This document shows, in pieces, positions 3,907-33,819 of a stretch of 64,000 bases of DNA (the stretch's first letter is position 1; every line of letters starts with the position of its first letter). The stretch is taken from positions 557-64,556 of the forward strand of contig JAYTCO010000280.1 of NCBI GenBank assembly GCA_043736415.1. Direction: 5' to 3'. The position numbers were made by a program, and so were the translations under genes. Source of the DNA: Ferruginibacter sp. GTDB lineage: Bacteria > Bacteroidota > Bacteroidia > Chitinophagales > Chitinophagaceae. Below the pieces are notes generated by a model. It saw nothing but the letters and a program-made list of their open reading frames with translations. It did no database searches and was not told the origin of the DNA.

Positions 3907-4034
3907 TTAAAGTATGGACAGCTTATTGCCATTATAGAACGTGCCACTTTGTGCAAAAGAATGTTCAGGTTAATATTTCCTTCATATACAAAACAAAGCC
4001 TTAACGGAAACTGACAGTGGATAATTACTTTTTT

Positions 4035-5237
4035 ATGAAAAAGGAAAGTTTAAATATTTTAACTGTTAACTGCGGCTCTTCCAGCATAAAATTTGCCATA
4101 TATGAAATTTACAGAAAGATCAACAAAATCTTATCAGGACACATAAAAAGAATTGGTTTGGATGATACTGCATTTATGATAACAAATTACATCACCGATG
4201 TAACAGAGGAAATAAAAACAGGAACAAAAAGTTTTAAAGAGGCGGCAGAATTTTTAATTACGCAGTTGAAAGAACAAAAATGTTTTAACAGCGTTGGTTG
4301 CATTGGGCATAGAATAGTTTATGGCATGGAACACACAGATCCGAAAATTATTGATGACCAATTGTTAACGGAATTAAATAAAATAAGAGAATATGATCCG
4401 GATCATCTTCCTGCAGAAATCGACATCATTAAATTATTTAAAAAACAATTTCCTACACTTTTACAGGTTGCCTGTTTTGATACTTCGTTCCATACAACCA
4501 TGCCGGCTGTTGCAAAAATTTTACCCATACCACGGCGCTTTGCCAAAGCCGGCATCAGGCGTTATGGCTTTCATGGCTTATCCTACACTTATTTAATGGA
4601 AAAGTTGAAACAAACAGAAGGTGCAGATAAAAGTAAGGGCAGAATTATTTTGGCTCATCTCGGAAATGGTGCAAGTTTAGCCGCTGTTAAAGAAGGGAAA
4701 AGTGTAGATACCAGCATGGGATTTACACCTGCCGGCGGGTTGGTAATGGGTACTAGAACGGGAGATTTAGACCCCGGAGTTGCCTGGTATATGTTACAAA
4801 ATGAAAAAATGACGGCAAAAAAATTCAATCATATAATAAATCACGAAAGTGGTTTATTAGCTGTTGCGGAAATAAGCGCTGATATGCAGGATTTGTTGAA
4901 AAAAGAAAGCTCAGATGTTCATGCGGCAGATGCAGTAACCTTATTCTGTTACCAGATTAAAAAATGGGTTGGCGCATATACAGCTGTGTTAAACGGACTT
5001 GATATACTGGTTTTTTCGGGAGGCATTGGTGAGAATGCTCCTGACATTCGCTCACGAATTTGTAAGGGATTTGATTATTTAAATATTGAAATAGATGAAA
5101 AAGAAAACAGTACTAACGCACTGCTTATTTCAACAAAAAAAAGTAAAGTAAAAGTATATGTAATACCTACAGACGAAGAAATAATAATAGCAAACAGTGC
5201 AAAAAAACTGTTTAAAAATGAATTAAAAAACACATAA
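4035..5237 (+). CDS. ackA: Acetate kinase
   Basis: ILTVNCGSSSIKFAIY N-terminus, RYGFHGLSY, and a GIGEN-type C-terminal motif. The start was moved to ATG 4035 (MKKESL) from the GTG at 4017. Confidence 0.9.
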   Translation: MKKESLNILTVNCGSSSIKFAIYEIYRKINKILSGHIKRIGLDDTAFMITNYITDVTEEIKTGTKSFKEAAEFLITQLKEQKCFNSVGCIGHRIVYGMEHTDPKIIDDQLLTELNKIREYDPDHLPAEIDIIKLFKKQFPTLLQVACFDTSFHTTMPAVAKILPIPRRFAKAGIRRYGFHGLSYTYLMEKLKQTEGADKSKGRIILAHLGNGASLAAVKEGKSVDTSMGFTPAGGLVMGTRTGDLDPGVAWYMLQNEKMTAKKFNHIINHESGLLAVAEISADMQDLLKKESSDVHAADAVTLFCYQIKKWVGAYTAVLNGLDILVFSGGIGENAPDIRSRICKGFDYLNIEIDEKENSTNALLISTKKSKVKVYVIPTDEEIIIANSAKKLFKNELKNT

Positions 5238-5260: not shown

Positions 5261-7645
5261 ATGGAAGCACAAAATTTAAAAACAGTAAAAGAAAATGTAT
5301 CAGATGAGATGCTTCATAAAATAAACAGGTACTGGCAGGCTGCTAATTATCTTTCAGTGGGGCAAATTTATTTGTATGATAATGCCCTTTTAAAAGAGCC
5401 TTTAAAACCTCATCATATTAAGCCGATGTTATTAGGACATTGGGGTACAACACCGGGGCAGAATTTTATTTATGTTCACCTAAACAGAATTATAAAAAAG
5501 TATGATCTTAACATGATTTATATTTCTGGACCAGGCCACGGAGGTCCGGCAATTGTGGGTAATGTTTATTTAGAAGGCACTTACAGTGAAATATATCCCA
5601 ACATCAGTAAAGATGCAGAAGGTTTGAAAAAACTGTTTAAACAATTTTCTTTTCCCGGTGGAATACCCAGCCACGTTTCTCCGGAGTGTCCGGGTTCCAT
5701 CCATGAAGGTGGCGAGCTGGGCTATTCTCTTAGTCATGCATTTGGCGCTGCCTTTGATAATCCTGATTTAATTGTATCGTGTGTAATTGGTGATGGCGAG
5801 GCAGAAACAGGCCCTTTAGCCACTGCCTGGCACTCCAATAAATTTCTTAACCCCGTAACTGATGGTGTGGTGCTACCCATACTGCATTTGAATGGATATA
5901 AAATTGCTAACCCAACCATTTTTGCCCGCATTAGCCATGAAGAACTTGAACAGCTTTTTTTAGGATATGGATGGAAACCTTATTTCATAGAAGGTGATGA
6001 CCCGATGCAAATGCACGAAGAAATGGCGCATTTGCTAAATACAGTTGTAGAAGAAATAAAAACAATAAAACAAAATGCAGCACACAATAAAAATGCCCAG
6101 CGTCCACAATGGCCAATGATTATTTTAAAATCTCCTAAAGGATGGACGGGACCAAAATATGTAAATGGGTTAAAGATTGAAGGAAACTTTCGTGCACACC
6201 AGGTTCCTATAACAGACCCGCTTACTAACCCCGAACATTTGGCTCAGCTTGAAGAATGGTTAAGAAGTTATAAGCCTGAAGAGCTTTTTGATAACACGGG
6301 ACATTTACTTCCTGAACTTGCTGACCTTGCTCCAAAAGGAAATCGGCGAATGGGCGCCAACCCGCATGCCAATGGTGGGCTGTTACTACACGATCTTCAT
6401 ATGCCTGACTTTCGTAATTATGGGATTAATTTACCGGTGCGTGGAGAGACCGGGCCGGGTGATACGCTGGTGCTTGGAAAGTTTATTCGTGATATTATTA
6501 AAGAAAATTCTAGCCAAAATAATTTTAGAATTTTTGGTCCGGACGAAACACTTTCAAATAAATTGAATGCAGTTTTTGAAACTACAAGCAGGCAATGGGA
6601 AGCACCAATAATAAATGCTGATGAGTTCCTTGCTACAGAAGGGCGTGTAATGGAAATGCTGAGTGAGCACCAGTGCGAAGGCTGGCTGGAAGGTTATCTG
6701 TTAACGGGCAGACATGGCTTGTTTAACTGTTACGAAGCTTTTATTCATATTATCGATTCCATGTTTAACCAACATGCCAAATGGCTAAAGGTTACTTCTC
6801 ATCTTCCATGGCGAAAGAAAATTTCTTCCTTAAATATTTTGTTAGCATCACACGTTTGGCGGCAGGATCATAATGGGTTTACACATCAGGATCCCGGTTT
6901 TCTTGATCATGCAATAAACAAAAAAGCATCCGTGGTGCGTGTGTATTTACCTGCCGATGCCAACTGTCTTTTATCGGTAATGGATCACTGTTTCCGTAGC
7001 AGACATTATGTAAATATAATTGTCGCCGGTAAGCACCCCTCACCTCAATGGCTTTCTGTAGAAGAGGCAGTAACACACTGTACCAGAGGTATAGGAATAT
7101 GGACCTGGGCGAGCAGCGATAAAGATATGGAACCAGATGTAGTAATGTCCTGTGCAGGTGATGTGCCGACGCTGGAAACAATGGCTGCAGTAGCAATTCT
7201 TCGTGAAAAATTACCTGAACTGAAAGTACGTGTTGTCAATGTTGTTGACCTAATGAAATTACAACCGGAGACGGAGCATCCGCATGGATTAAGCGATGCT
7301 GATTTTGATACATTATTTACAAAAGGGAAGCCCGTAATTTTTGCTTTTCATGGCTATCCAACGCTAATACACAAGCTTACATACCGGCGAACAAATCACA
7401 GCAACATACACGTACGGGGTTACAAAGAAGAAGGTACTATTACCACTGCTTTTGATATGACTGTTTTAAATGACATGGACCGGTTTCATTTGGTAATTGA
7501 TACGCTCGACAGGCTGCCGCAAATAAAGGAAAGAACTGCTTACCTTAAACAGGAAATGCAGGATAAACTTGTTGAGCACAAATATTATATTCGCAAACAC
7601 GGTCTGGATATGCCGGAGATAAAAAACTGGAAATGGAAAGAATAG
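5261..7645 (+). CDS. xfp: Xylulose-5-phosphate/fructose-6-phosphate phosphoketolase
   Basis: 794 aa. The N-terminal [23 protein letters not shown] and [22 protein letters not shown] are hallmark phosphoketolase motifs. It starts 24 nt after ackA. Confidence 0.9.
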
Positions 7646-10081: not shown

Positions 10082-10229
10082 ATGGTTTCTAAAAATAAAA
10101 ACAGGTAACGGTATGTTGAATTAATATTTAGGCAGATAAAAATATCAGGTGATACAAATAAGCTAAGTCACTGATTGTCGTCATGTCCTAAAATTAAAAT
10201 CAGTAATAATTTTACACAAAACAAAAGAT

Positions 10230-10679
10230 ATGTTAGGAGAACTAAATAATGATCAAATAAATAACCTGCTAAGTAGCCAGGTTGTAGGACGGCTTGCATG
10301 TACAGATGGCGAAAAACCTTACATCGTCCCGGTAACTTATACTTATGATGGTAAATATATTTACGGGCAGACGAACATGGGCAAGAAATTAAAAATGCTT
10401 AGAAAAAACTCAAATGTTTGTTTTGAAGTGGACCAGATGACTGACATGAGAAACTGGCAAAGTATTATTGTACAAGGCGAGTTTGAGGAACTTAAAAATG
10501 AAGAAAAAGAAAAAGCAAGAGGAATACTTTTTGGAAATATTTTTTCCTTGGAAACAAGCAGTACCGTACATGCACATGAACATGAAGTAACGACTACCGT
10601 GGAAGATAGTGAAAGGGTAAAGTTTGTTATGTACAGGATTAAGATCAAAAAAATAACAGGCCGGTTTGAAAAACTTTAG
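10230..10679 (+). CDS. Pyridoxamine 5'-phosphate oxidase-like FMN-binding protein (Pyridox_ox_2/NimA-like)
   Basis: 149 aa. GRLAC..DG.PYIVPV.Y..DG..IYG.T..G.K...L..N..VCFEV is typical of the split-barrel flavin-binding family. Confidence 0.6.
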   Translation: MLGELNNDQINNLLSSQVVGRLACTDGEKPYIVPVTYTYDGKYIYGQTNMGKKLKMLRKNSNVCFEVDQMTDMRNWQSIIVQGEFEELKNEEKEKARGILFGNIFSLETSSTVHAHEHEVTTTVEDSERVKFVMYRIKIKKITGRFEKL

Positions 10680-10717
10680 GTAGATTTTTTATTGCCAAAT
10701 TTCTATATTATCCTACT

Positions 10718-10729
10718 GATATGAATCAT
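10718..10729. promoter_or_regulatory. FNR/FixK-like box TGATatgaATCA upstream of ccoN
   Basis: Perfect TGAT-N4-ATCA read directly. Its centre lies about 146 bp upstream of the ccoN ATG. Binding is inferred. Confidence 0.45.
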
Positions 10730-10869
10730 CACAATTCCTGATTGGCAACACAAAAGATTTATACCTATCATTTCATCTTTGCAGTTTAGTACTGTTGACA
10801 ACAGGCAACAAGTTTATATAATTTGTTTAGTTTTTTTAATGCAACTACGATTCTTTCAACCAAATAACA

Positions 10870-13035
10870 ATGATGTACAACCACGAGCGGTTTAAAAAAC
10901 GTTTACTTATTGCAGCACTTTCGCTGCTTTCCATTTCTAAAGCATCTGCGCAGGCCGCTGATAATATCATAAAAACAAACAGTAACTCTTTTGGATTATG
11001 GATTTTTGCAGGGCTTGTTATAATTCCTTTACTCTTTATAATTGGCAAATTATATTTAGATTTTAAACTTCAGTTAAAGAAAAATAATGAGTGGAACAAA
11101 GAAGGTACTACCCTTAAATTTTCTCAATACCTTAAAAATTTTGACAGAGCCCAAATACATACTTTTGTAACACTTAAAAAGAAAAAATGTTGCGGTAAAT
11201 GCAAGGGCGATGCTGGTTGTGGTGTCAGTAAAAAAGTTGTAGGCATAGTTGTGGTTTTGTTGTGTTTTGCAGACAATATTTTTGCGCAGGCAGCAAAAGA
11301 AAACAAAGCTTTAAGCTCACAACCCGGTATCATCATCACTATTGTGTTGATGCTGATTCCTATTTTACTGGCGGTAATATTTGCACTGGCAAAAGCAAAT
11401 AATGCCATAAGGAATTTTGCCAATAACAAAAAGAAAAAGGAAGCAGGTTCATTTGCTGAATATCTTCAAAACGTTGATGATGCTGCATTGCAGCAGGAAT
11501 TTATTAAAAAAGATAACCTTCCCGTTTATAATTTAACCCACAACGAGCTTTCAGGTAATGAAAAAGCCGAAGACAGTAAAGGGCTGTTAAGCAATATAAG
11601 TGATAAGCATGAAACACATTTTACAGCATCTAAAAGAAAAGCGGCAATTCGGCCAACATTAGATGCCGATATTACAAAACTGATTTTGTGGTATTTGGGT
11701 TGTGCAACATTTTGGCTTGTACTGGGTACAGGCATTGGCGAATACCTCGGAATAAAATTTGTAGCGCCCGATACAGATCACGTCAGCTGGTTAAGCTTCG
11801 GTAGGCTAAGACCTGTGCATACCAATATTGTATTTTGGGGTTGGGCGTCTTTAGCAATGATTGGGCTTGGTTATTATGTAGTACCTACCGTAAGCAATGC
11901 AAAAATTTACAGCATCAAATTTGGTTACATAGCCCTTGCTTGTACAAATATTATGGTAGTTGCGGGGTCTATTGCTTTAATGAGTGGCATAAACAATGGG
12001 GGCGGAGAATTTAGAGAATACATCTGGCCCATTATGGCGTTTTTCGCTGTAGCGCTAATTCTAACATTTATTAATTTCTTTTTGACTGTTGCAAAACGAA
12101 CTACAAAAGAAATTTATATTTCCAATTGGTTTATACTTTCAGCTTTGCTGTTTACCATAATTGTTGCTTTAACTGCTTATTTACCTTTTTGGCAAAATGG
12201 TATTGGAGAAACAATTGTACAGGGATATTTTATGCACTCAGGTGTGGGCATGTGGTTTACATTGTATGTTGTAGGGTTATTATATTATTTTATTCCGCAG
12301 CAAATAAACAAACCAATTTATGCTTACAGTTTAGGCATACTTGCCTTTTGGACACAGATTATTTTCTATACAGTTATTGGTACGCATCACTTTGTTTTTA
12401 GCGCTATTCCATGGTGGCTGCAAACAGTTGCCATTATTGGAAGTGCAGGTATGATAATTCCTGTGGTAGCTGCTACAATTAATTTTACGATGACGTTTAA
12501 AGGCCATTGGAATAAAATTATAAACAGCTATACACTGCCCTTCTTTTTTGTAGCAGTCATTTATTATTTTTTGGTTTCGATGCAGGGAACGGTAGAGGCT
12601 TTTAAGTTTACAAATCTGCTTTGGCATTTTACAGATTTTACTGTAGCTCACGCCCACGCCGGCTTTTACGGCATTATAACTTTTGCATTGTGGGGTGGCA
12701 TTTATGCCATTGTGCCAAGGTTAACAGGTAAAGAACCTCCGCAGCATTTAGTAGGTGCACATTTCTGGATAGCATTTATAGGGCTTATTTTTTATGTTGT
12801 ACCACTTTCTATTGGTGCTACGCTTAGGGGATTAATGTGGATGGATGGGAAACCTTTTATAGACAGTGTTGTTGTAATGTTTCAGTATTGGGTGTGGCGG
12901 GCTATAGGCGGTAGCCTGATGTTTATATCGCATGTAATTTTTGCATACAATTTTTATAGAATGGTAACAAAAGAAATTGAACCGTTGGATGTAAAAAACG
13001 AAGCGTTTCAACAACTTGGATTACATCAAAAATAA
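10870..13035 (+). CDS. ccoN: cbb3-type (C-family) heme-copper oxidase subunit I with a ~260-aa N-terminal membrane extension
   Basis: The C-terminal ~460 aa have 12 TM-like segments. The helix-7 motif YTVIGTHHFVFSAIPWWLQ has a Tyr six residues before the HH pair, the C-family cross-link position. The N-terminal extension has an internal duplication. Confidence 0.8.
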   Translation: MMYNHERFKKRLLIAALSLLSISKASAQAADNIIKTNSNSFGLWIFAGLVIIPLLFIIGKLYLDFKLQLKKNNEWNKEGTTLKFSQYLKNFDRAQIHTFVTLKKKKCCGKCKGDAGCGVSKKVVGIVVVLLCFADNIFAQAAKENKALSSQPGIIITIVLMLIPILLAVIFALAKANNAIRNFANNKKKKEAGSFAEYLQNVDDAALQQEFIKKDNLPVYNLTHNELSGNEKAEDSKGLLSNISDKHETHFTASKRKAAIRPTLDADITKLILWYLGCATFWLVLGTGIGEYLGIKFVAPDTDHVSWLSFGRLRPVHTNIVFWGWASLAMIGLGYYVVPTVSNAKIYSIKFGYIALACTNIMVVAGSIALMSGINNGGGEFREYIWPIMAFFAVALILTFINFFLTVAKRTTKEIYISNWFILSALLFTIIVALTAYLPFWQNGIGETIVQGYFMHSGVGMWFTLYVVGLLYYFIPQQINKPIYAYSLGILAFWTQIIFYTVIGTHHFVFSAIPWWLQTVAIIGSAGMIIPVVAATINFTMTFKGHWNKIINSYTLPFFFVAVIYYFLVSMQGTVEAFKFTNLLWHFTDFTVAHAHAGFYGIITFALWGGIYAIVPRLTGKEPPQHLVGAHFWIAFIGLIFYVVPLSIGATLRGLMWMDGKPFIDSVVVMFQYWVWRAIGGSLMFISHVIFAYNFYRMVTKEIEPLDVKNEAFQQLGLHQK

Positions 13036-13077
13036 GCTGTTATAAAACTTATTTAACTTCTAAAAATATTATTACAG

Positions 13078-14085
13078 ATGAATGTTTTTAATGATCATAA
13101 AAAATTATACTCAATTGCAGGTTTGCTGTTTTTAGTGCTTACTTATGTTACAGTAATAATGCCTGCTTTGCAAAATCAAAATAACAATGCACCGCTGCCG
13201 GGCTCAGTGCCTTTGGCAGGTGATGCGCTGGCGGGCAAATCGGTTTATGTGGCGGAAGGCTGTGTAGGCTGCCATTCACAACAGGTAAGGAATATTGAAA
13301 TGGATAAGGTCTTTGGCTCAAGGCCGGGTATGGCTTCAGACTATGCAAATTTAAAACGAATGAATGTATGGCAAAATACATCTACCGTTATGGGTACAGA
13401 AAGAACAGGCCCGGATCTTACAAATATTGCAGAAAGACAATCCAGTAAAGACTGGCATTTGATGCATTTATTTAATCCCCGCTCAGTGGTGGCACAATCC
13501 ATTATGCCTTCTTATGAATGGCTTTTCGAAATAAAAGATTCTGCTGCAAAAAATGATATGGTCGTAAATGTTCCGGCTGCATTTTTAAACGGCAGAAAAG
13601 GCAAGGTTGTTGCAAAAAAAGAAGCGTTACAATTGCTGGCATATTTGCTTACGCTAAAACAAATACCATTGCCCGATGGAACTAAACCAATGGAATTTTT
13701 ATATAAAAAAGAGCAAAAAGAAGTAGCAGGAGGAGAAGTAAAAGCCGGCGTTAATGGACAAACATTATACACAACCAACTGTCAGAGTTGCCACCAGGCA
13801 AATGGTGAAGGGCTTAAAGGCGCTTTTCCTCCTTTAAAAGGAAGCCCGATCGTTAACGGAGATAACCTGGAATTGTATGTAGATATTATTATGAATGGTT
13901 ATGATGCAAGAGCAGAATATGGAGTAATGCCGGCAGTTGGAACAAATATGAATTTTACAGAAAATGATGTAGCAGCACTTATAAATTATGAAAGAACAAG
14001 TTGGGGAAACGCCGGTAAAAAAGTAACGCCTGAAGAAATAAAAAAGATAATGGATTTTGTTAAAATTAAAGCAGCTTCAAAATAA
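13078..14085 (+). CDS. ccoO: Dihaem cytochrome c subunit: CcoO-like domain fused to a second c-type cytochrome domain
   Basis: N-terminal TM segment. The first haem site CVGCHSQQVR with GTERTGPDL and HLFNPR are CcoO/FixO motifs. A second CQSCHQ haem site and MPAVG lie in the C-terminal domain. Confidence 0.75.
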   Translation: MNVFNDHKKLYSIAGLLFLVLTYVTVIMPALQNQNNNAPLPGSVPLAGDALAGKSVYVAEGCVGCHSQQVRNIEMDKVFGSRPGMASDYANLKRMNVWQNTSTVMGTERTGPDLTNIAERQSSKDWHLMHLFNPRSVVAQSIMPSYEWLFEIKDSAAKNDMVVNVPAAFLNGRKGKVVAKKEALQLLAYLLTLKQIPLPDGTKPMEFLYKKEQKEVAGGEVKAGVNGQTLYTTNCQSCHQANGEGLKGAFPPLKGSPIVNGDNLELYVDIIMNGYDARAEYGVMPAVGTNMNFTENDVAALINYERTSWGNAGKKVTPEEIKKIMDFVKIKAASK

Positions 14086-14884: not shown

Positions 14885-15262
14885 ATGAAAGACAGTACAG
14901 CACATTTACATTTAATATGTGAAGAGTTCAAAAGAACATTACAGTTTTACAAATCTGAAATACCATTTTTTAAAAAAAGACAGGAAGAAATTTCAATAAA
15001 AAATACAGGAGAAGAAATTCGCAAACAGGTAGAACATTTTGAAAATATATTTATTACTATGAATGAAAACCTTGATGTGTTGATGCATGATGTAAACATT
15101 AAACAGGATGCTATATTGAAGGATGCAAAAGAAAAGCCTGATTTTATAAATTTAAAGGTAAATGAAACTGCAGATGATTTAAAAGCATTAATAGATTTTA
15201 CAACTAAAGAATTTGCCGAAACAAAAGAGCATTTTTATCGTTTTCTATCTGAACATTTATAA
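14885..15262 (+). CDS. Helical hypothetical protein (paralog-like to 15731..16120)
   Basis: 125 aa, predicted all-helical. It shares size, heptad-like pattern and C-terminal ending (F..FLSEHL vs FNKYLSENI) with the ORF at 15731. Confidence 0.45.
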   Translation: MKDSTAHLHLICEEFKRTLQFYKSEIPFFKKRQEEISIKNTGEEIRKQVEHFENIFITMNENLDVLMHDVNIKQDAILKDAKEKPDFINLKVNETADDLKALIDFTTKEFAETKEHFYRFLSEHL

Positions 15263-15642: not shown

Positions 15643-15654
15643 TGATTACAATCA
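15643..15654. promoter_or_regulatory. FNR/FixK-like box tTGATtacaATCAc
   Basis: Perfect TGAT-N4-ATCA. Its centre lies about 82 bp upstream of ATG 15731. Confidence 0.45.
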
Positions 15655-15730
15655 CCCACACTGCTAATATTAATCGTTGTTTAAAGTATTTCATAAAAAT
15701 AACTTTAAACATTACTATCAATTGTTTAAA

Positions 15731-16120
15731 ATGCAAATTGAGAAAATGACTGAGTTAAAATTAATGCAATTGCGGCACGAAATAAATACATGGAAACGCA
15801 TGCTTGGTTTTATGCAGGAAGAAAACGTGCATTTAAAAAACAGGTTATCTGATGTTCTTAAAGACAGGTTTAATAAAAACCTTTTGGATGAAGTAGAGTT
15901 TTTTCAAACCAACTTTATTAAAGAAGACGAAGTAATTGGATTATTAAAAAGTGAAGTGGCAGCAATAGAAAATATTATAAAATGGGACCTGATAACCCAT
16001 GAAAACAATTTACTGATCAAGAAGGGAATAGAAAATGTTAGAAATAATATTGATGCTGCTGAAAGAGATTTTACAAAAATAAGTATTGACTTTAATAAAT
16101 ATTTGTCTGAAAATATTTAG
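15731..16120 (+). CDS. Helical hypothetical protein (paralog-like to 14885..15262)
   Basis: Start set at ATG 15731 (MQIEKMTELK) rather than TTG 15677, because the FNR-like box falls inside the longer version. Confidence 0.45.
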   Translation: MQIEKMTELKLMQLRHEINTWKRMLGFMQEENVHLKNRLSDVLKDRFNKNLLDEVEFFQTNFIKEDEVIGLLKSEVAAIENIIKWDLITHENNLLIKKGIENVRNNIDAAERDFTKISIDFNKYLSENI

Positions 16121-16271: not shown

Positions 16272-16463
16272 ATGAAAAAGAATATGGGTAAAACAGACAG
16301 AACTTTAAGAGTAGTTTTAAGCATTATCATTGCAGTCATAGGCTATTACTACAAATCGTGGTGGGGGTTGCTTGCATTTATACCGCTTGCTACTTCTTAC
16401 ATAGGCTTTTGTCCATTATACAAAATAATCGGGATTAACAGTTGTAACAAAAATGAGTGCTAA
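16272..16463 (+). CDS. DUF2892 (YgaP-like) small membrane protein
   Basis: 63 aa. DRTLRVVLSIIIAVIGYY...LLAFIPLATSYIGFCPLYKIIGINSC is the typical DUF2892 two-TM pattern. Confidence 0.65.
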   Translation: MKKNMGKTDRTLRVVLSIIIAVIGYYYKSWWGLLAFIPLATSYIGFCPLYKIIGINSCNKNEC

Positions 16464-16464
16464 A

Positions 16465-17523
16465 TTAATTGAGTAAATGTGATAATTTTTCTTCGTTGAG
16501 AATGATGATATTCCCTTCCTTAATATCAACTAATTTTTCTGTTCTAAAATCGCTGAGCGTTCGTATTAGGGATTCGGTCGCAGTACCTGCAATGCTAGCG
16601 AGGCACTCTCGGCTTATTGCAATTTCAAAATTATCAACATTTTCCTTCCTGTATTTTTTTTGTAAAAGCATTAAAGCTTCTGCAACTTTTTTGCGGAGCG
16701 AATTATAGGCAAGTCCCAGCAACTGATCTTCTTTTTCAGAAATATTTTTTGCAAGCAATTGAATAAATTTCCTTGCTACCTGCACATTGTTGTTTAATAA
16801 TTCATCAAAATCTTCTTTAGGAATAATGGCAAGCGAAGTCTCTTCCATGGTCTCAGTTGTATCTCTGTAAACAGTTTCTTCCAGCATGGCAATATATCCA
16901 AAAAAATCGCCCTGGCTGTACAATTCGGTTACCAGTTCTTTACCGTCATTATTGGTTTTAAAGGCTTTTACTTTTCCGCTTACCACATAATATAATTTGT
17001 TGGGATGGTTTCCTTCAGCATAAATTATTTGTTTCTTTTTATATTTATTTATGTTTCTGTCTTCGGCCAAAGTGCTAAGCTCATTTTTACCAAACGATGC
17101 CTGCATCAGCGTATTAAGCCCTTCTATTGAAGGGTTAAGCTGTTGCCGCAGCAATTCATTTTTTTTTAATCGGCTGTTAACTGCATTTAATAATTCCGTA
17201 CCGTCAAATGGTTTTGTAATATAATCATCTGCACCAGATTCCATACCTTTTCTAAAATCGTTGCGCTCTGTTTTTGCAGTAAGAAAAATAAAGGGTGTAT
17301 TTTTTATTGTTTCATTTTTTTGTACCGCATGTAATACACCGTAACCATCAAGCACAGGCATCATAATATCGCAAATAATCAAATCCGGCATGTGCTGCAA
17401 TGCCATTTCCACACCAATTTTTCCATTGGCAGCAGTTATTACTTTGTAGTTTGACAGCTCTAATATTTCAGCAGTGTTTTCCCGTATGAGGTCATTGTCT
17501 TCAATCAGTAATATCTTTTTCAT
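16465..17523 (-). CDS. Hybrid response regulator: CheY-like receiver + cNMP-binding-like domain + CRP/FNR-type HTH
   Basis: The receiver has KILLIEDN, PDLIICDIMMP (phospho-Asp) and YITKPF. The beta-barrel has IIYAEGNHPNKLYYVVSGKVK....G.E. The C-terminal HTH ISRECLASIAGTATESLIRTLSDF has the E-x3-R recognition pair. Confidence 0.85.
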   Translation of the reverse strand: MKKILLIEDNDLIRENTAEILELSNYKVITAANGKIGVEMALQHMPDLIICDIMMPVLDGYGVLHAVQKNETIKNTPFIFLTAKTERNDFRKGMESGADDYITKPFDGTELLNAVNSRLKKNELLRQQLNPSIEGLNTLMQASFGKNELSTLAEDRNINKYKKKQIIYAEGNHPNKLYYVVSGKVKAFKTNNDGKELVTELYSQGDFFGYIAMLEETVYRDTTETMEETSLAIIPKEDFDELLNNNVQVARKFIQLLAKNISEKEDQLLGLAYNSLRKKVAEALMLLQKKYRKENVDNFEIAISRECLASIAGTATESLIRTLSDFRTEKLVDIKEGNIIILNEEKLSHLLN

Positions 17524-17528
17524 ACAGT

Positions 17529-18737
17529 TTATTTTGTGCTGAATGTTATTTTAAACTCCGTACCTTTTTCCAGTTCACTCAAGCATTCTACAGTACCATT
17601 CATAAGCTCTGCATATTTTGCTACTATGTGTAACCCCAGGCCTGTTCCCTGTATATTTCCGGCGTTTGCACCTCTAAAAAACCGCTCCATTAAATGTTTC
17701 TGATCATCTTTTGAAATACCCATACCTAAATCTTTTACAGACAGTATTAAATGCGCTGCTGTATGAATTGTATTTATTTCAATTGTACTTCCCTCCGGTG
17801 AAAACTTGCTTGCGTTGGAAATTAAGTTCATAATAATGTGCTTTACCAGCGATGTATCCATTTCAACATTTTCGTCCCCCGTATGAGTGTATTGTATCTG
17901 CTGGTTTTTTTGCAGATTATTTTTAATCTCTTCCATTACCGAAACAATATGTTCGTGAATATTAAATTCAGAAACCCTTACCGGTATTTTACCTTCTTCA
18001 ATTTTGCCAACACTTAAAAAATCATTTAAAATATCCGTAAGCATATTTACTGATGAAACTATTCGTTGCAAATGTTTTTCCCGCTTGGGCTGATGTTCTG
18101 TAGTAGTATATTTTTCAATTAAATAAGAGGAAGATAAAACAGTGCTGAGTGGTGTGCGAAATTCATGGGATGCCATTGATACAAAACGTGATTTTAATTC
18201 ACTCAATTCTTTTTCTTTTTCAAGCGATCTGGAAAGTTCTTCTTTAGATTTTTCAAGCTGGTGCATAGCATCTGTAAGTTCTTTTGTTCTTTGCTCAACA
18301 GTTGCTTCCAGATCATCATTTAATTTTATAATTTCTGCTTCTGCATTTTTTCTGGTAGACGTATCACTTATAAATGCAATTACATTTTTATCGCCATCTT
18401 TTTCATAATTACCTAAGCTCACTTCTACCTGAAATTCCCTACCGTCTTTTTTTACACCGAACAGATCCATACCATTACCCATAGACCGGCTTTTTGGATT
18501 GTGTGTATAATTTTCCCGGTGATCATTGTGTTTGTGGTGGTACCGTTGCGGTATTAATATCTCTATCGGTTTATCAATTATTTCTTCAATTTTATAACAA
18601 AAAAGATTAAGTGCAAATGGGTTTACAGATAGAATTATACCTTTGCTGTTTACTACCACAATACCCATGGAAGCATGGTTAAAAAGTGCTTCATAACGAT
18701 AAGACTGATTAAAATTATTTTGTTCAGTAGCGGGCAT
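17529..18737 (-). CDS. PAS-domain sensor histidine kinase (FixL-like PAS core)
   Basis: The PAS domain has ILIPQRYHHKHNDHRENY...GVKKDGREFQVEVSLG. H-box SHEFRTPL, N-box NLISNASKFSP and G-boxes DLGMGI / GTGLGL are present. It ends 5 nt before the regulator gene. Confidence 0.85.
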   Translation of the reverse strand: MPATEQNNFNQSYRYEALFNHASMGIVVVNSKGIILSVNPFALNLFCYKIEEIIDKPIEILIPQRYHHKHNDHRENYTHNPKSRSMGNGMDLFGVKKDGREFQVEVSLGNYEKDGDKNVIAFISDTSTRKNAEAEIIKLNDDLEATVEQRTKELTDAMHQLEKSKEELSRSLEKEKELSELKSRFVSMASHEFRTPLSTVLSSSYLIEKYTTTEHQPKREKHLQRIVSSVNMLTDILNDFLSVGKIEEGKIPVRVSEFNIHEHIVSVMEEIKNNLQKNQQIQYTHTGDENVEMDTSLVKHIIMNLISNASKFSPEGSTIEINTIHTAAHLILSVKDLGMGISKDDQKHLMERFFRGANAGNIQGTGLGLHIVAKYAELMNGTVECLSELEKGTEFKITFSTK

Positions 18738-18843: not shown

Positions 18844-19011
18844 CTATTTTGTGTCTTCAATTTCTATATCAGTTTCACCATGTCTAATGGTCGGAGAATC
18901 ATTTTCTAATTGTCTTTCAAAATTTTTTCTATCTCTATTATTACGGATAATGGTAAACACAATTAATGCAACTACTGCCACACTCACCATAAATATTAAT
19001 AAAATTTTCAT
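18844..19011 (-). CDS. Possible 55-aa single-TM protein
   Basis: My own translation gives MKILLIFMVSVAVVALIVFTIIRNNRDRKNFERQLENDSPTIRHGETDIEIEDTK. It is below the ORF-track cutoff, lies between trxA and the kinase gene, and has no homology support. Confidence 0.3.
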   Translation of the reverse strand: MKILLIFMVSVAVVALIVFTIIRNNRDRKNFERQLENDSPTIRHGETDIEIEDTK

Positions 19012-21934: not shown

Positions 21935-22768
21935 TCAATAACTGCAAAGTGATTTTATTTCTGACAGTATATTTGAAATTCGGGTTATGGAGATGCTTAT
22001 GTCATGCAATAATGCTTCCCTTTTTAAAAGTTCTTTACACAAAACAATTCCTTCCATTAATATTGTTTCTTTTTCTTTATTTGTTAAGGATGTAAGGCAT
22101 GTAATTGGATATAAACCGGACTCATCTATTAAATTACGCAGGCTTTTATTGGCAGGATAATCCCAGCTTAATAAACTTAACCCTTCACAAACACCATATT
22201 TTACTGCGTCAGATGAGAATTTGGTATTGGTAACAACACAGCATTTTAAAGGTTTATGAGATGTTTTTTGCCAGTTGTTTTGTACGTCTCTGTACCGAGA
22301 ATGCACATAGAGCGGTATTTTTACATTGCTTACAATGCCAAGACTGTTATGAAATTTGCATTCGGTTAATAAAAAATGATCCTCATTTTCTGCCAATACA
22401 TCTATCTCATGCGTTACACATGCACCTTCTAAAAAAAGCTGCGTTTGTACTTTGTATCCCTGCCATTCAAATATAGCAGCAATGTATTTTTCAAATGGAA
22501 AACCTGATGGACCTAAAGCCATGATAGCTCTCTTTAAATTATAACGGCCGGCATTACTTTTTAAGTCTTTCTTAAGCATATTAAATGCTGCCTGGTATAT
22601 TTTTTTTGTAGAAATGCCATCATATAATATTGATTCTATTTCAAATAAAATATTTTCTACTGTATTTTCATCTGCTCCAGATTTTTTTAGAGATGCTCTC
22701 AATTTCTCTGATGAAAATATATCCTGAACACCGGAAGCTTTTGTGATGGTAATATTTTTATTTTTCAT
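21935..22768 (-). CDS. ATP-cone domain fused to PD-(D/E)xK (Mrr/restriction-endonuclease-like) domain
   Basis: The N-terminal ~90 aa (ITKASGVQDIFSSEKLRASLKKSGA......I...IE..L.DGISTKKIY) fit an ATP-cone. The core HEIDVLAE...FLLTECKF gives a D...ExK nuclease-fold motif. Confidence 0.6.
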   Translation of the reverse strand: MKNKNITITKASGVQDIFSSEKLRASLKKSGADENTVENILFEIESILYDGISTKKIYQAAFNMLKKDLKSNAGRYNLKRAIMALGPSGFPFEKYIAAIFEWQGYKVQTQLFLEGACVTHEIDVLAENEDHFLLTECKFHNSLGIVSNVKIPLYVHSRYRDVQNNWQKTSHKPLKCCVVTNTKFSSDAVKYGVCEGLSLLSWDYPANKSLRNLIDESGLYPITCLTSLTNKEKETILMEGIVLCKELLKREALLHDISISITRISNILSEIKSLCSY

Positions 22769-31524: not shown

Positions 31525-32616
31525 TTAACCTTCTTTCACGTTGTACTCAATACTTTTCAACGTAAATTTTCCGTAAACAAATTCACCCTCAGGATAATGC
31601 CAAACTGTTTCTCCATACTGCATAATATTGCGCCCATCAATTTGAGCATAATTTTTTACAGGAGTAGAAAAACCATATTCCTTCATTTCGTTAACAGCAT
31701 ATCTGTCATCAGAAATAAAATTTATCAGTTGCCCCTGCTCATTAAAATATAGAATTGCGTTTATTTTATTTACGCCATTTGTAAAAGTCGCCTTGGCAGA
31801 TAAACTATCAATCGCTGTCCATAGAATTCTTTTGTCAATTAACGAAGCGGGTGCCATAAGGCACATATCGTTAAATACTGTTACAGTTTCGGCTTTATTT
31901 AATTCCGTACCTTTTATGCTTACTACATTAAATAAGCCCAACGGTTTTATTTGCATGGTTGCCCTTTCATTTTGGTAACAGTGATAACCCGGTACAGGAA
32001 CACCATAAATCTTTGCTTTCATAAAAAACAATCTGGTTGGGTCATCAAAAAAATTATACTGTACAGAAGTAAATTTGAAAAAATCCTTTCCCTTTTCCCT
32101 CATTTCGCCGTCAAAAATAATTCTCATATTTTTTACTTTCGGTTTATTAACTGCTCCTGAATAACGAATATATTTTTGAACCGGAAATGGCAGAGAAACA
32201 ATATCTGCATCTATCAATAAATCATTGGTTACAAAATTTGTTTCGGCCATATGGTTATCAATATCTTTCTTAAAGTTCATTTCAAAGTGAAAGGTTGCCC
32301 AAGAAGAAATGGTAACAACAAGAATAATAATATTTAAAACAGTTCCAAATTTTGCATCATGCCAAACCGAAATAATTAGTACCTGAGATATTACAACTGC
32401 AGCAAAGGCAACATATACCCAACCTTCTTTTTTCAATAAACATAGTATAGCTGCTGTTACAAAAAGAAGAGCTGTAAGCAGCCAAAAAATGCCATTTGGT
32501 TTAGAAATATCTTTTGTTAGCTGAGGAATATTTGCATAATTAAATGCTTTTGCAAAACCCATTGTATGGAGTAGTCCATGAGCAAACAAAATGATGGGTA
32601 GAAGGTATTTAAGCAT
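31525..32616 (-). CDS. Membrane-anchored uncharacterised protein (4 N-terminal TM + ~250-aa soluble domain)
   Basis: 363 aa. The start overlaps the Acg-like gene stop by 8 nt, suggesting translational coupling. I cannot assign a family with confidence. Confidence 0.5.
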   Translation of the reverse strand: MLKYLLPIILFAHGLLHTMGFAKAFNYANIPQLTKDISKPNGIFWLLTALLFVTAAILCLLKKEGWVYVAFAAVVISQVLIISVWHDAKFGTVLNIIILVVTISSWATFHFEMNFKKDIDNHMAETNFVTNDLLIDADIVSLPFPVQKYIRYSGAVNKPKVKNMRIIFDGEMREKGKDFFKFTSVQYNFFDDPTRLFFMKAKIYGVPVPGYHCYQNERATMQIKPLGLFNVVSIKGTELNKAETVTVFNDMCLMAPASLIDKRILWTAIDSLSAKATFTNGVNKINAILYFNEQGQLINFISDDRYAVNEMKEYGFSTPVKNYAQIDGRNIMQYGETVWHYPEGEFVYGKFTLKSIEYNVKEG

Positions 32617-33736
32617 AATTCTTTTTTACAAATGACTCTATCGAACGCCTTAATGACACAGGATTTGGGTAATTTTTTAAATACCCTGTTCGTAAAATAA
32701 ACTGCACAGGATCGTTAATCCCCATAGAGGTATTTAAAATTTGATTTGTTTTTGCTTCTTCAATTATCTGCGTCATTGGGTGAATGGCAATATTTCTCCC
32801 TCTTACTTTTAACCATAGCCTTTGCAATCTTTTACCGGTTTCTAATAATGTTTCTAACGAATTATCTTTGCTTGTTATAAGTAACCATCCTGCTGATGCA
32901 TTCGAAACTTCCTTCACCACTTTATCAATACTTTGCTCCCTAAAACTTTTTTTCATCACATCGCTTTTGCCATAAAAATTTCGCAAATACCAGCCAGGTA
33001 TACCTTCTATTTCCATACCTGCAAGTGTGAGCCCGTCTAAATATTTGGCTGCATCTTTATCGGAGAATCTTATCCAATCTGCTAATTCGCTTTGTGCTGC
33101 ATCTCTGTACGATTGAATCCTGTTGGCTTCAATGGTTTGTTCATTTAGCCATACATGTTCTTTTGAGCTATTAGGAATGTAATGAATGAAATCATTTTCA
33201 TCGTTAAGTAAATATGAAATGTCTTCTCTTTTAAGTATATCGCTTAAATAATTTGAACGAACAGTGCGACGTTGCTTTATTTGTTCAATATCATATTTGA
33301 TAATCCTTGTTGCTTTAGTAAGTTTTAGGTCAACTACATTTTCATTTTGATTATTTGTGGCTAAAATATTATACTGATAATTGTAACCAAAGCTTTTTGC
33401 AGCGTATTCTAAATTTTGTAAAAAAGCTCCGATAGATAAAATGGTTTCTCGTTGTGTAGGGTCAACACCGGGTAACCAGCGGCTTTTATCATTGCAAATA
33501 ATCCAATGGTATGGCTCCAAATATTTTACAAACCATGGTTGTGTGTTGTGCCCGCTTGGCGCAAGGGAAGCAAGTGCCAATATATCTCTTTCATGCGGCT
33601 TAAAAGGAAATTCAATTGTAAAATCTTGTTTTATATCTGCTCTTACCAAATTATTTTTATCGCTAAAGCCATAGTAAGTTGCGCCGCCAATAACGATAGC
33701 AGATCCTGTAAAAGCTAAAAATTTTCGCCTCGTCAT
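32609..33736 (-). CDS. Acg-type (tandem) nitroreductase-family FMN protein with twin-arginine signal
   Basis: Start set at MTRRKFLAFTGSAIVIGGATYYG, a Tat-like RRxFL motif. APSGHNTQPW is a nitroreductase motif, and the ~375-aa size fits Acg-family proteins. The longer listed start (33868) would add an AT-rich low-complexity leader that covers the promoter box. Confidence 0.7.
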   Translation of the reverse strand: MTRRKFLAFTGSAIVIGGATYYGFSDKNNLVRADIKQDFTIEFPFKPHERDILALASLAPSGHNTQPWFVKYLEPYHWIICNDKSRWLPGVDPTQRETILSIGAFLQNLEYAAKSFGYNYQYNILATNNQNENVVDLKLTKATRIIKYDIEQIKQRRTVRSNYLSDILKREDISYLLNDENDFIHYIPNSSKEHVWLNEQTIEANRIQSYRDAAQSELADWIRFSDKDAAKYLDGLTLAGMEIEGIPGWYLRNFYGKSDVMKKSFREQSIDKVVKEVSNASAGWLLITSKDNSLETLLETGKRLQRLWLKVRGRNIAIHPMTQIIEEAKTNQILNTSMGINDPVQFILRTGYLKNYPNPVSLRRSIESFVKKNYA

Positions 33737-33807
33737 AATATTTCTAAAATTTATTAATGGAATTATTAATAAAGTATAAAAATATTCAAACAGATTGTTT
33801 ATTAAAA

Positions 33808-33819
33808 TGATCAAAATCA
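33808..33819. promoter_or_regulatory. FNR/FixK-like box aTGATcaaaATCAg upstream of the Acg-like gene
   Basis: Perfect TGAT-N4-ATCA. Its centre lies about 78 bp upstream of ATG 33736. Confidence 0.45.

Follow-up and report, generated by a model that had tools for sequence, protein, structure and literature searches.

Proteins of the CRP/FNR family are textbook one-component regulators, each responding to a ligand that it binds itself, such as cAMP, heme or an Fe-S cluster, and in many of them the β-barrel serves as a scaffold only. In the FixL-FixJ-FixK systems of rhizobia and Caulobacter, a regulator of this family is the end point of a cascade that starts with FixL, a soluble PAS-HisKA-HATPase kinase with a five-coordinate heme and the distal residues Arg220 and Arg206. 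FixL is followed by FixJ, which has a LuxR-type HTH, and by the separately encoded FixK, which acts on boxes with a TGAT-N4-ATCA core and whose regulon is concerned with nitrogen fixation. Related heme-PAS domains occur in EcDOS (DosP), which shows His/Met ligation in its ferrous form and drives a c-di-GMP phosphodiesterase, and in FG214, a one-component regulator from Fimbriimonas ginsengisoli (PDB 10jx), where the heme is held via His156 and, in the crystal of the reduced form, by Met172 on the distal side (preprint 10.64898/2026.03.15.711900). In Mycobacterium tuberculosis, the heme-based kinases DosS and DosT, which sense through GAF domains, are paired with the response regulator DosR (the DevSR system). 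The DosR regulon includes alpha-crystallin/Hsp20, several universal stress proteins (USPs) and Acg/Rv3131-type nitroreductases (PMC3177182).

Here, we describe a locus in a 64-kb stretch of DNA from Ferruginibacter sp. (the window) that shares features with each of these systems. Like FixL, its kinase is soluble, with a PAS domain nearest to the heme domain of FixL, and its predicted end point is likewise a CRP/FNR-type protein acting on boxes with the same core, one of them before a cbb3-like oxidase. Unlike in the rhizobial cascade, however, receiver and CRP/FNR body form a single protein, there being neither a FixJ with a LuxR-type HTH nor a separate FixK gene. If the reading given below is correct, a large and conserved family has placed the CRP/FNR fold under a phosphorylation receiver, which would be a distinct mode of control.

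A kinase-regulator pair common in Bacteroidota

Both genes lie on the minus strand. The sensor histidine kinase (HK; 17529..18737), of 402 aa, comprises PAS (residues 14-125), HisKA (182-249) and HATPase_c (294-400) domains according to Pfam, and no transmembrane segment was found in it (maximum Kyte-Doolittle 19-residue average 1.45). Its catalytic motifs are the H-box HEFRTP with the phospho-accepting His191 inside the HisKA domain (codon 18165..18167, minus strand), the N box NLISNA, the G1 box DLGMG and the G2 box GTGLGL. The response regulator (RR; 16465..17523), of 352 aa and with a REC-cNMP_binding-like barrel-HTH_Crp_2 architecture, is encoded 3′ of HK after a gap of 5 nt (17524..17528); an earlier note on this DNA had given the same open reading frames and spacing. 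A divergent cbb3-like oxidase is found upstream of the pair and an array encoding USP, Acg, P-type ATPase and PfkB proteins downstream.

The architecture survey proposed in the earlier note revealed the HK-RR pair in at least 578 species genomes, mainly from Chitinophagales, so that the REC-CRP architecture is common rather than rare among Bacteroidota relatives. Of 80 species loci, about 72 have a kinase gene directly 5′ of RR, and a convergent gene for a small helical protein usually accompanies the pair, adjoining RR in 57-63 of the 80. Nevertheless, a literature search, whose scope did not extend to Galperin's response-regulator census papers, found no characterized REC-CRP regulator, as the note had also supposed for Bacteroidota. 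Flavobacterium RgzAB, described in a preprint, was considered as a precedent and rejected, RgzB being a single-domain response regulator.

A PAS domain predicted to hold heme

The PAS domain of HK (18363..18698, minus strand) is predicted to bind heme and to belong to the FixL/DosP/FG214 class. When this domain alone was searched against PDB sequences, the close matches were solely FixL, EcDOS/DosP and FG214 (E-values from 5.8e-12 to 7e-8), and the next match was a non-heme PAS domain with an E-value of 1.7e-3. Its core, residues 60-109, aligns without gaps to FixL (phmmer E-value 5.8e-12 for RmFixL) as well as being matched to EcDOS and FG214, and, as had been read by eye, a histidine occupies the proximal column: His70 (codon 18528..18530, minus strand), predicted to lie on the Fα helix, aligns with H194 of RmFixL, H77 of EcDOS and H156 of FG214. 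A structure prediction, which the earlier note had suggested, gave a confident AF2 model (pLDDT 87.5) from a shallow alignment of 20 short fragments, obtained in a homolog search with the PAS domain alone. The top 31 Foldseek matches of the model in the PDB are all heme-PAS domains, the best (TM 0.89) being BjFixL 8js5. According to the PAS classification of Xing et al. 2023, the Fα His is the primary heme determinant in the FixL/DosP cluster (cluster 3; PMC10468136), and the HK domain has this residue in His70.

Conservation points in the same direction. Of 67 partner kinases, 64 retain His70, as do 793 of 827 related PAS domains (96%), while Arg84 and Met86 (codon 18480..18482, minus strand) are nearly invariant, with a methionine at column 86 in 63 aligned partner PAS domains. 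Met86, the candidate distal ligand, aligns with the distal Met172 of FG214, and the two proteins have the motif H-x2-H-R-x2-Y-x3-P-x2-R-x-M-G in common. Met95 of EcDOS aligns two residues away from Met86, at N88.

The distal side of the pocket, in contrast, is not that of FixL. As claimed previously, the arginine columns of RmFixL (R200 and R214; R206 and R220 in BjFixL) are occupied by N76 and M90 in HK, and across the partner kinases column 90 holds Met in 31 cases, Leu in 15, Lys in 10 and Arg in 9. The column of the distal His175 of FG214 is Gly89, and glycine is found there in 60 partner domains. With the FixL arginines absent and a glycine in the His175 column, the pocket equals that of no characterized sensor exactly. 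We conclude from these comparisons that the PAS domain most likely holds a b-type heme, and that its pocket is more probably of the His/Met than of the FixL type, because the distal Arg of FixL is absent and Met86 aligns with the distal Met of FG214. If the distal pocket is indeed of the His/Met type, the signal may come from redox changes or from a gas that displaces Met and not, as in FixL, from O2 bound to an arginine. The original description of a FixL-like sensor thus stands as regards the FixL/DosP heme-PAS class and the retained Fα His, but not as regards the distal side.

An alternative would retain a genuine two-component system, with operator and regulon unchanged, but give it a PAS domain without a gas- or redox-sensing heme, which would bind another ligand or none and would report, for example, on energy status, on a metabolite or on general stress. 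The residues that define O2 sensing in FixL are missing from HK, its PAS clade is huge (60,710 representative clusters, some of its proteins having 13-14 tandem copies), a further PAS domain of a different kind is present in many partner kinases, and the Fα His, being kept so widely in the clade, could in principle have a structural role. Moreover, about 40% of the FixL/DosP PAS cluster lacks this His and presumably senses other signals (PMC10468136). Nevertheless, we consider a heme-less sensor unlikely in view of the joint retention of His70, Met86 and Arg84 among the partners, of the fact that all close matches of known function are heme proteins, including FG214 with its identical extended motif, and of a predicted regulon consisting of classic low-oxygen genes, which encode a cbb3-like oxidase, a HemN-like radical SAM protein, Hsp20, USP and Acg. 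A heme-holding PAS domain is the reading we retain.

We also considered, and rejected, a distinct "type B" group of partner kinases, as the longer kinases turned out to combine a PAS domain of the query type with a second one.

The regulator carries a receiver on a CRP/FNR-type body

A Pfam profile search found all three domains of the proposed receiver-barrel-HTH fusion in RR: Response_reg (residues 4-116, E-value 5.9e-28), cNMP_binding (160-246, 3.5e-22) and HTH_Crp_2 (279-349, 6.9e-13). The receiver (17176..17514, minus strand) has an intact phospho-acceptor site. Asp52 (codon 17368..17370), present in LIICDIMMP as previously read, is invariant together with E8, D9, Y101 and K104 in 79 of 79 orthologs, and position 82 is Thr in 68 and Ser in 11 of them. 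In the recognition-helix region (residues 313-326, GTATESLIRTLSDF; 16546..16587, minus strand), E317 and R321 of the TESLIR motif pointed out in the note, as well as S318, are likewise invariant in all 79 orthologs.

With class II activators of the FNR/CRP type, RR shares the barrel and HTH_Crp fold, the Glu/Arg pair on the recognition helix, a TGA...TCA repeat with a 4-bp spacer as the predicted site and the inferred centering of that site near -42. Residues 154-346 are matched by PDB entry 2gau (E-value 7.8e-23), and no PDB entry spanned both halves of the protein. RR differs from FNR in lacking the [4Fe-4S] Cys cluster, its only cysteines being at positions 51 and 307, and from CRP in a phosphate-binding cassette that keeps Gly71 but departs from the canonical cAMP type in length and at other positions; presumably, its activity is set by the N-terminal receiver. 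An AF2 model of full-length RR was poor (pLDDT 65, pTM 0.38) and was left out of the packing and fold analysis.

The notion of a FixL-FixJ-FixK cascade collapsed into two proteins is apt as a functional analogy. It does not extend to the protein families, since the best family-model matches of the receiver are of the OmpR/PhoB type and the CRP half scores well below the curated cut-offs for FixK (NF050806; 82.9 bits versus 300), CRP (82 versus 266) and Fnr (67 versus 228).

Alternatively, RR might integrate two inputs, phosphorylation of the receiver and a small molecule, cyclic nucleotide or other, bound in the barrel (residues 160-246; 16786..17046, minus strand). The significant cNMP_binding match would be in keeping with this, as would the invariant pocket residues G205, G209 and Y219 and the basic residue at position 220. 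The phosphate-binding cassette, however, is non-canonical: from G205 to R220 it exceeds the G71 to R82 segment of CRP by 4 residues, the Arg82 column is mostly Lys (Lys in 53 and Arg in 14 of 79 orthologs), and although Gly71 of CRP is kept, Glu72 is replaced by Asp and Ser83 by Glu/Asp. Together with the scaffold-only role of the barrel in many family members, this makes a second input rather unlikely in our judgment, and we favor control through the receiver.

Predicted operator boxes and promoter geometry

An unbiased enumeration of palindromes in non-coding DNA near the HK-RR genes ranked TGAT-N4-ATCA first, with 47 occurrences versus 5.3 expected. The broader pattern (A/C)TGA(T/C)-N4-(A/G)TCA(T/G) occurs at 147 sites in non-gene DNA, compared with 7.7 ± 2.7 in dinucleotide shuffles. 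In the window, TGAT-N4-ATCA is found 6 times versus 1.37 expected, a count reached in 0 of 100 shuffles; four of these boxes are at promoter positions (10717, 15643, 33808 and 34795), with a fifth, variant site at 10172. Boxes at 4394, 14565 and 52851, which lie inside coding sequence and have no promoter architecture, were treated as chance occurrences. The FixK/FNR-like boxes reported earlier are borne out, being strongly enriched and tied to the locus across 80 genomes, but not in their outer bases, since the flank is preferentially A or C, versus the T of TTGAT in FNR/FixK sites, and the window contains no perfect copy of the strict FNR consensus TTGAT-N4-ATCAA. The residue of RR that we take to occupy the position of Ser212 in FNR is Ile, which fits the loss of this outer T, and the invariant E317, S318 and R321 fit the invariant core of the box.

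The boxes are phased both with each other and with the promoter. Counted from the center of the box, a -7 element is found at exactly +29 in 22 cases and at exactly +51 in 46, over a background of about 1 per position. A second box-like site is present at an offset of -22 bp in 48% of cases and of +22 bp in 29%, over a background of 2.4%. With the transcription start placed relative to TAnnTTTG as is general for Bacteroidota promoters, the tandem boxes would be centered about 42 and 64 bp 5′ of it, a geometry that we infer to be that of an activator.

The boxes thin out away from RR, from 2.0 to 0.39 per non-coding kb, their density peaking at less than 2 kb and being about five-fold lower by 6 kb. 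The HK-RR operon has boxes upstream in 22 of 72 loci, as does the small gene next to RR in 29 of 50 promoters, and boxes are also found in 20% of the "other" promoters near RR. Over its 64 kb, the window has no stand-alone CRP/FNR paralog, and the 80 flanks have essentially none. In a composite promoter scan of the window, the canonical site was absent before the HK-RR operon and in the 19-31 kb stress array; accordingly, the claim that the pair sits between a cbb3 cluster and a hypoxia-type array with boxes is right about the context, but the canonical box is missing from that array. A recognition-helix variant, T316K, did not co-vary with the box sequence (p = 0.46), so that it is co-localization alone that links RR to the boxes.

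That the boxes are bound by a classical CRP/FNR regulator encoded elsewhere, with RR recognizing another sequence or competing for them, would suit a TGA...TCA core that is generic for the FNR/FixK/CRP family, the lack of co-variation, the boxless HK-RR operon of the window and the boxed "other" promoters, but we judge it improbable in the face of the steep decay of box density away from RR, the boxes before the HK-RR operon and the small gene, the lack of a stand-alone paralog and a recognition helix that is invariant, as expected with an invariant site.

Predicted targets

The most conserved predicted target is the small helical/coiled-coil protein of 124 aa, a length also given in the NCBI annotation, which is encoded convergently with RR (15746..16120, plus strand) and which, apart from coiled-coil noise, matched nothing in Pfam, NCBIfam or the PDB profiles. 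It is preceded by a tandem operator (15643..15676) with a perfect distal box (15643..15654, TGATTACAATCA) and a degenerate proximal one (15665..15676), followed by the -7 element TAACTTTA (15700..15707), an arrangement shared by 29 of 50 promoters of the orthologous small gene.

Two further plus-strand targets are predicted nearby. A Pyridox_ox_2 (PNPOx-like) flavoprotein, identified by Pfam (10230..10679), lies behind a tandem operator at 10150..10183, with a distal box at 10150..10161 (1 mismatch), a proximal box at 10172..10183 (TGATTGTCGTCA) and the -7 element TAATTTTA at 10207..10214; its homologs are preceded by a box in 5-7 other loci. The divergent cbb3-like (C-family) oxidase (10870..14085) consists of a CcoN-like protein (10870..13035) and a CcoO/cytochrome c fusion (13078..14085) and scores below the curated cut-offs (261 versus 583 bits for ccoN). 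Tandem boxes lie 5′ of it at 10717..10750 (10717..10728, TGATATGAATCA; 10739..10750, 1 mismatch), and no -7 element was found at the canonical phase, which makes the assignment of this promoter weaker. An oxidase ortholog in another of the surveyed loci (L002) also has an upstream tandem box pair, and a homolog is found within 6 kb of RR in 17 of 80 loci.

On the minus strand, a predicted target is an Acg-family FMN oxidoreductase (Rv3131-like; 32609..33736), which matches NF047509 with 230 bits (cut-off 199). The domain begins at residue 96 of a long open reading frame, and the start was revised to 33736 (MTRRKFLAF...). Its tandem operator (33808..33841) comprises a proximal box at 33808..33819 (TGATCAAAATCA) and a distal one at 33830..33841 (1 mismatch), and its -7 element is at 33777..33784 (minus strand). 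Next to it, a tandem universal stress protein with two Pfam Usp stretches (33901..34719, minus strand) is predicted to be controlled from the box TGATAATAATCA at 34795..34806, with a -7 element identical to that of the flavoprotein gene (TAATTTTA) at 34763..34770 (minus strand).

Judging from the boxes in many relatives, the regulon would include the HK-RR operon itself, the small helical protein, Hsp20, USPs, Acg-type and other nitroreductases, the PNPOx-like flavoprotein and the cbb3-like oxidase. HK-RR thus appears to turn on a low-oxygen/stress gene set, which we predict to be a programme of the low-oxygen/dormancy type. The low-oxygen regulon envisaged earlier is upheld by such predicted targets, the cbb3-like oxidase among them; its content, however, is closer to that of mycobacterial DosR than to that of FixK, being stress- and dormancy-like rather than directed to nitrogen fixation.

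Proposed mechanism and comparison with DosRST

Taken as a whole, the explanation that we consider probable is that HK and RR form a cytoplasmic two-component system with a co-transcribed regulator, in which a heme-PAS kinase acts through the REC-CRP/FNR protein and the boxes on a low-oxygen programme. The heme ligands would be His70 on Fα and, as the likely sixth one, Met86 in the FG loop, in a His/Met site of the EcDOS/FG214 kind rather than a five-coordinate one with a distal Arg. Whereas the PAS domain of EcDOS drives a phosphodiesterase, the one described here would drive a histidine kinase: autophosphorylation of His191 would be switched when the heme changes state, whether by losing O2, by being reduced or by having its Met replaced by a gas, and the phosphoryl group would pass to Asp52 of RR. 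In place of the usual OmpR- or NarL-type output, RR would use a CRP/FNR-type body of β-barrel, dimer helix and winged HTH. The phosphorylated protein, presumably a dimer, would bind (A/C)TGA(T/C)-N4-(A/G)TCA(T/G), usually at two sites 22 bp apart, and would, from about -42 and -64, probably activate rather than repress transcription. Computation directly supports the domain architectures, the catalytic and candidate ligand residues, the conserved gene neighborhood and boxes that are enriched, phased and linked to the locus. Heme binding, phosphotransfer, the kind of signal, recognition of the boxes by RR and its activating role are extrapolated from these.

This scheme resembles DosRST in combining a (here predicted) heme-based kinase with a response regulator, in its tandem boxes, the proximal one beside the promoter, and in the autoregulation predicted for many relatives. 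The targets, Hsp20, USPs and Acg-type nitroreductases, are likewise shared, with a P-type cation ATPase and PfkB as neighbors. Since the Dos kinases sense via GAF domains and DosR has a NarL/LuxR-type output with another box, the resemblance is one of function, that is, convergence and not homology. More tentatively, we suggest that Chitinophagia and related Bacteroidota may possess a phylum-specific hypoxia/dormancy programme set by phosphorylation of a CRP/FNR-fold activator, driven by a His/Met heme-PAS kinase and read out through a tandem TGAY-N4-RTCA promoter code, as a convergent counterpart of DosRST.

Should this hold, it would be an independent case of the Hsp20/USP/Acg dormancy set under a heme-based kinase, a first handle on low-oxygen sensing and survival in the abundant Chitinophagales of soil and freshwater, and a novel control mode for the CRP/FNR fold, with no ligand or Fe-S cluster in the barrel. 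RR would then be a natural system in which to study how a CRP-type dimer can be driven by a receiver. The analysis provides specifics ready for experiment, namely His70, Met86, His191, Asp52, Glu317/Arg321, the operator, the promoter geometry and the target genes, and culturable hosts are available in Chitinophaga filiformis, Niastella, Pseudoflavitalea rhizosphaerae, Pollutibacter soli and Flavipsychrobacter stenotrophus.

The kinase and the regulator

The kinase (17529..18737, minus strand, 402 aa) and the regulator (16465..17523, minus strand, 352 aa) are separated by 5 nt, exactly as an earlier note, made from the sequence by eye, had placed them. Pfam identifies PAS (residues 14-125), HisKA (182-249) and HATPase_c (294-400) domains in the kinase and Response_reg (4-116; E 5.9e-28), cNMP_binding (160-246; E 3.5e-22) and HTH_Crp_2 (279-349; E 6.9e-13) domains in the regulator, thus recovering all three parts of the proposed fusion of a receiver, a cNMP-like barrel and a CRP/FNR HTH. 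The H-box of the kinase (His191) is normal, as are its N, G1 and G2 boxes, and the protein lacks a membrane segment.

No curated NCBIfam model attains its cut-off with either protein. The CRP half of the regulator scores 82.9 bits against the FixK model (cut-off 300), 82 bits against the CRP model (cut-off 266) and 67 bits against the Fnr model (cut-off 228), and the top-scoring models for the receiver are OmpR/PhoB-type regulators. The idea of a collapsed FixLJ-FixK cascade therefore serves as an analogy and does not amount to a demonstrated origin of the pair. Database names for the exact proteins of the window are generic or absent; the cluster of the kinase is named 'PAS domain S-box-containing protein', and homologs of the regulator are annotated 'response regulator' or 'CRP/FNR family transcriptional regulator'. 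No PDB entry covering both halves of the regulator was found. On either side of the pair is a small ORF for a membrane protein: a YgaP-like TM protein (16272..16463, plus strand, 63 aa; Pfam E 1e-19), convergent with the regulator and ending 1 nt from its stop codon, and, between the kinase and the thioredoxin gene, an ORF of 54 aa that has a single hydrophobic segment (18847..19011, minus strand).

The PAS sensor domain

When the PAS domain alone was searched by sequence against all solved structures, heme-PAS proteins were the only close matches: RmFixL (E 5.8e-12), the Fimbriimonas ginsengisoli heme-PAS regulator FG214 (PDB 10jx; E 1.7e-11), EcDOS/DosP (E about 1e-9 to 2e-8) and BjFixL (E about 4e-8). 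The core alignments are ungapped and match His70 to RmFixL His194 and EcDOS His77, in agreement with the by-eye alignment to FixL; the Asn and Met noticed there in the columns of two FixL arginines are N76 and M90. An AlphaFold2 model covering kinase residues 1-144 was obtained with good confidence (mean pLDDT 87.5); in it, His70 sits on a long Fα helix (64-79). In a Foldseek search of this model against the PDB, ranks 1-31 are all heme-PAS domains, with BjFixL 8js5 as the best match (TM 0.89). A rival explanation is that the PAS domain is of a non-heme type; the first non-heme PAS match in the sequence search follows the heme-PAS set at E 1.7e-3, and LOV domains enter the Foldseek ranking only at rank 32 and beyond.

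In FG214, the proximal ligand has been assigned to His156; the distal ligand is His175 in the ferric form and Met172 in the dithionite-reduced crystal (10.64898/2026.03.15.711900). His156, His175 and Met172 align with His70, Gly89 and Met86 of the kinase, which thus retains the proximal His and the Met and lacks the distal His. Judged by this alignment, the predicted heme pocket is of the EcDOS/FG214 kind and not of the FixL kind.

A large-scale PAS classification places FixL and DosP in one cluster (PMC10468136). The subtype is very large: an exhaustive representative search returned 60,710 clusters at E <= 1e-3, among them many multi-PAS proteins. Within the 827 PAS domains of the top 150 proteins of this search, 793 have His70, and most of these (480) a FixL-type Arg at column 90, unlike the clade of the window kinase. 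Several proteins of 2,400-5,500 aa (P0142-P0146, P0151, P0153 and others) each carry 12-14 tandem FixL-like PAS copies; 96% of the domains among the top subtype matches have the Fα histidine, and a distal Arg of the FixL type is present in most copies. Should the Fα His signify heme, each of these giant polypeptides would hold a dozen heme sensors in an array.

Conservation of the module

The earlier note had raised the matter of how far the regulator architecture is spread; it is abundant, not rare, with relatives encoded at at least 578 loci in a scan of species-representative genomes. The best 80 of these show 59-95% identity and are nearly all from Chitinophagales, the closest being Ferruginibacter MAGs, which makes this genus the probable source of the window. 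Among the carriers that can be cultured are Chitinophaga filiformis, Niastella sp., Pseudoflavitalea rhizosphaerae, Pollutibacter soli and Flavipsychrobacter stenotrophus. At about 72 of the 80 loci, a kinase gene lies directly 5' of the regulator. Partner kinases of ~400 aa have one PAS domain, and those of ~545 aa have the same domain followed by a second, different PAS. Column 70 is His in 64 of 67 partner kinases, and there is hardly any variation at Met86 and Arg84. The second PAS, present in about half of the partner kinases (residues ~170-320; loci L003, L006, L008, L009, L013, L014 and others), has an insertion of ~10 residues, no Fα histidine and the motif FHDKxEI...DDFxVLxEKxRRNIHxE, and suggests a second input absent from the window kinase.

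All 79 orthologs compared share the catalytic residues E8, D9, D52, Y101 and K104 of the regulator; at position 82, 68 of them have T and 11 have S. E317, S318 and R321 of the recognition helix are likewise invariant. A second ligand input through the barrel of the regulator is a rival to control by the kinase alone. Since the cNMP-like cassette exceeds that of CRP by 4 residues and mostly has Lys in place of CRP Arg82, canonical cyclic-nucleotide binding appears doubtful.

The most conserved neighbor of the regulator, also one of its predicted targets and convergent with it at 57-63 of the 80 loci, is the third gene of the module, which encodes a small helical/coiled-coil protein of ~124 aa (15746..16120, plus strand). 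It has no detectable family and is named 'hypothetical protein' in the database; this protein may be a functional partner of the two-component system. Few residues are invariant in its alignment (W16, E26, E51, F116). A paralogous ~124-aa helical/coiled-coil protein, likewise without a detectable family, is encoded at 14885..15262 (plus strand).

Predicted operator and promoter geometry

The TGAT-N4-ATCA palindrome noticed earlier occurs 6 times in the window versus 1.37 expected. In an unbiased enumeration of every gapped 4-mer and 5-mer palindrome in the non-ORF DNA of the 80 loci and the window, it also came out on top (47 versus 5.3), followed by ATGA-N6-TCAT and TGAC-N4-GTCA; the top 5-mer was ATGAT-N4-ATCAT. 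Boxes with the consensus (A/C)TGA(T/C)-N4-(A/G)TCA(T/G) number 147, compared with 7.7 +/- 2.7 in 100 dinucleotide shuffles of the same segments (maximum 14). Perfect boxes occur in 29/50 promoters of the small helical gene, 22/72 of the kinase and 86/420 of other neighbors. The boxes might instead be bound by a different regulator; their density, 2.0 per non-coding kb up to a distance of 2 kb from the regulator gene, drops to 0.39 at 5-6 kb, and a search for stand-alone CRP/FNR genes found none in the 64-kb window and one weak match in the 80 flanks. The site flank is A/C, in contrast to the T of TTGAT in FNR sites. FNR Ser212 contacts the outer T of its site, and the recognition helix of the regulator has Ile at the Ser212 position, a difference consistent with the A/C flank.

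Across 148 non-coding boxes, a TAnnTTT(G/A) element of the -7 type lies exactly 29 nt downstream of the box center in 22 cases and exactly 51 nt downstream in 46, against a background of about 1 per position. In 48% of cases another box-like site lies exactly 22 bp away at offset -22, and in 29% at +22 (background 2.4%). In Bacteroidota promoters the first T of TAnnTTTG lies near -13, which would put the two sites at centers near -42 and -64. By this analysis, the predicted geometry matches that of class II activators of the CRP/FNR type, with a helper site further upstream. The arrangement is reminiscent of the Dev boxes, also in tandem, of DosR promoters (PMC3177182).

The predicted regulon

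The gene most often preceded by a box is that of the small helical protein (31 loci); next come the kinase-regulator operon (21, and 5 for the regulator alone), Hsp20 (16), Pyridox_ox_2 (5) and USP-like proteins (4; named by similarity, a scanned representative giving no Pfam match). Two loci each have boxes before a HemN-like radical SAM enzyme, OsmC, a nitroreductase, YceI, a PLD enzyme, a P-type ATPase and the cbb3-like oxidase.

Five promoters of the window fit the predicted pattern, upstream of Pyridox_ox_2 (10150/10172), the cbb3-like oxidase (tandem boxes 10717/10739, with no -7 element at the canonical phase), the small helical gene (15643/15665), an Acg-family gene (33830/33808) and a tandem USP (34795). 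A composite scan for box and promoter gave 6 sites in the window versus 0.6 in shuffles, none of them upstream of the kinase-regulator operon or in the 19-31 kb array (thioredoxin, two P-type ATPases, DeoC aldolase, USPs, PfkB, 2-hydroxyacid dehydrogenase). For this stretch the scan did not bear out the box-bearing hypoxia array of the earlier note; the operon and the array may be controlled otherwise or via weaker sites. A 277-aa ORF in the array (21935..22768, minus strand) is out of keeping with its neighbors and has only weak matches, to AF1548-like C-terminal, Mrr_cat restriction-endonuclease and ATP-cone domains (E 0.0015-0.011).

In the best-supported model, a heme-based kinase acts through the receiver-CRP/FNR regulator on a low-oxygen/stress regulon. 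The cytoplasmic kinase would sense by heme, with His70 and Met86 as probable ligands, and phosphorylate the receiver fused to the CRP/FNR body; the regulator would then activate the regulon from phased tandem sites. We infer each of these elements: that the kinase binds heme, what it senses, that it passes a phosphoryl group to the regulator, and that the regulator binds DNA and activates transcription. The low-oxygen kinase-regulator picture drawn previously is kept, with corrections to the type of pocket and to the regulon, whose predicted content is closer to DosR than to FixK. Heme-PAS kinases and CRP/FNR regulators are already known, and the REC-CRP combination is visible in databases; no characterized REC-CRP/FNR member was found in the literature searched. 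New here are a widespread family of putative CRP/FNR activators under receiver control, the predicted operator and promoter code of this family, and a DosR-like predicted regulon in Chitinophagales.

Individual genes of the window

Acetate kinase (4017..5237) and phosphoketolase (5261..7645), both on the plus strand, form a substrate-level phosphorylation pair that fits an oxygen-limited lifestyle. They have no upstream regulator box; TGATCCGGATCA at 4394 was rejected as one, being within the ackA coding sequence and devoid of promoter architecture.

The oxidase genes match the cbb3 CcoN and CcoO/P models, as expected for the cbb3 cluster recognized earlier, but score far under the curated cut-offs, and we therefore call them divergent cbb3-like. 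The CcoN-like subunit (10870..13035, plus strand) has an N-terminal extension of ~270 aa with hydrophobic segments and a Cys-rich stretch, KKCCGKCKGDAGCG; the subunit encoded downstream is a CcoO fused to a CcoP-like cytochrome c. Because both subunits fall so far below the cut-offs, the oxidase may be a distinct C-family subtype, or the CcoN-like start may be miscalled.

The ORF of the Acg-family FMN oxidoreductase (32609..33868, minus strand) has an over-extended 5' end. With translation starting at 33736, the most probable position, the protein begins with MTRRKFLAFTGSAIVIGGATYYG. This N-terminus resembles a twin-arginine export signal, and such a signal would be unexpected on an Acg/Rv3131-type protein.
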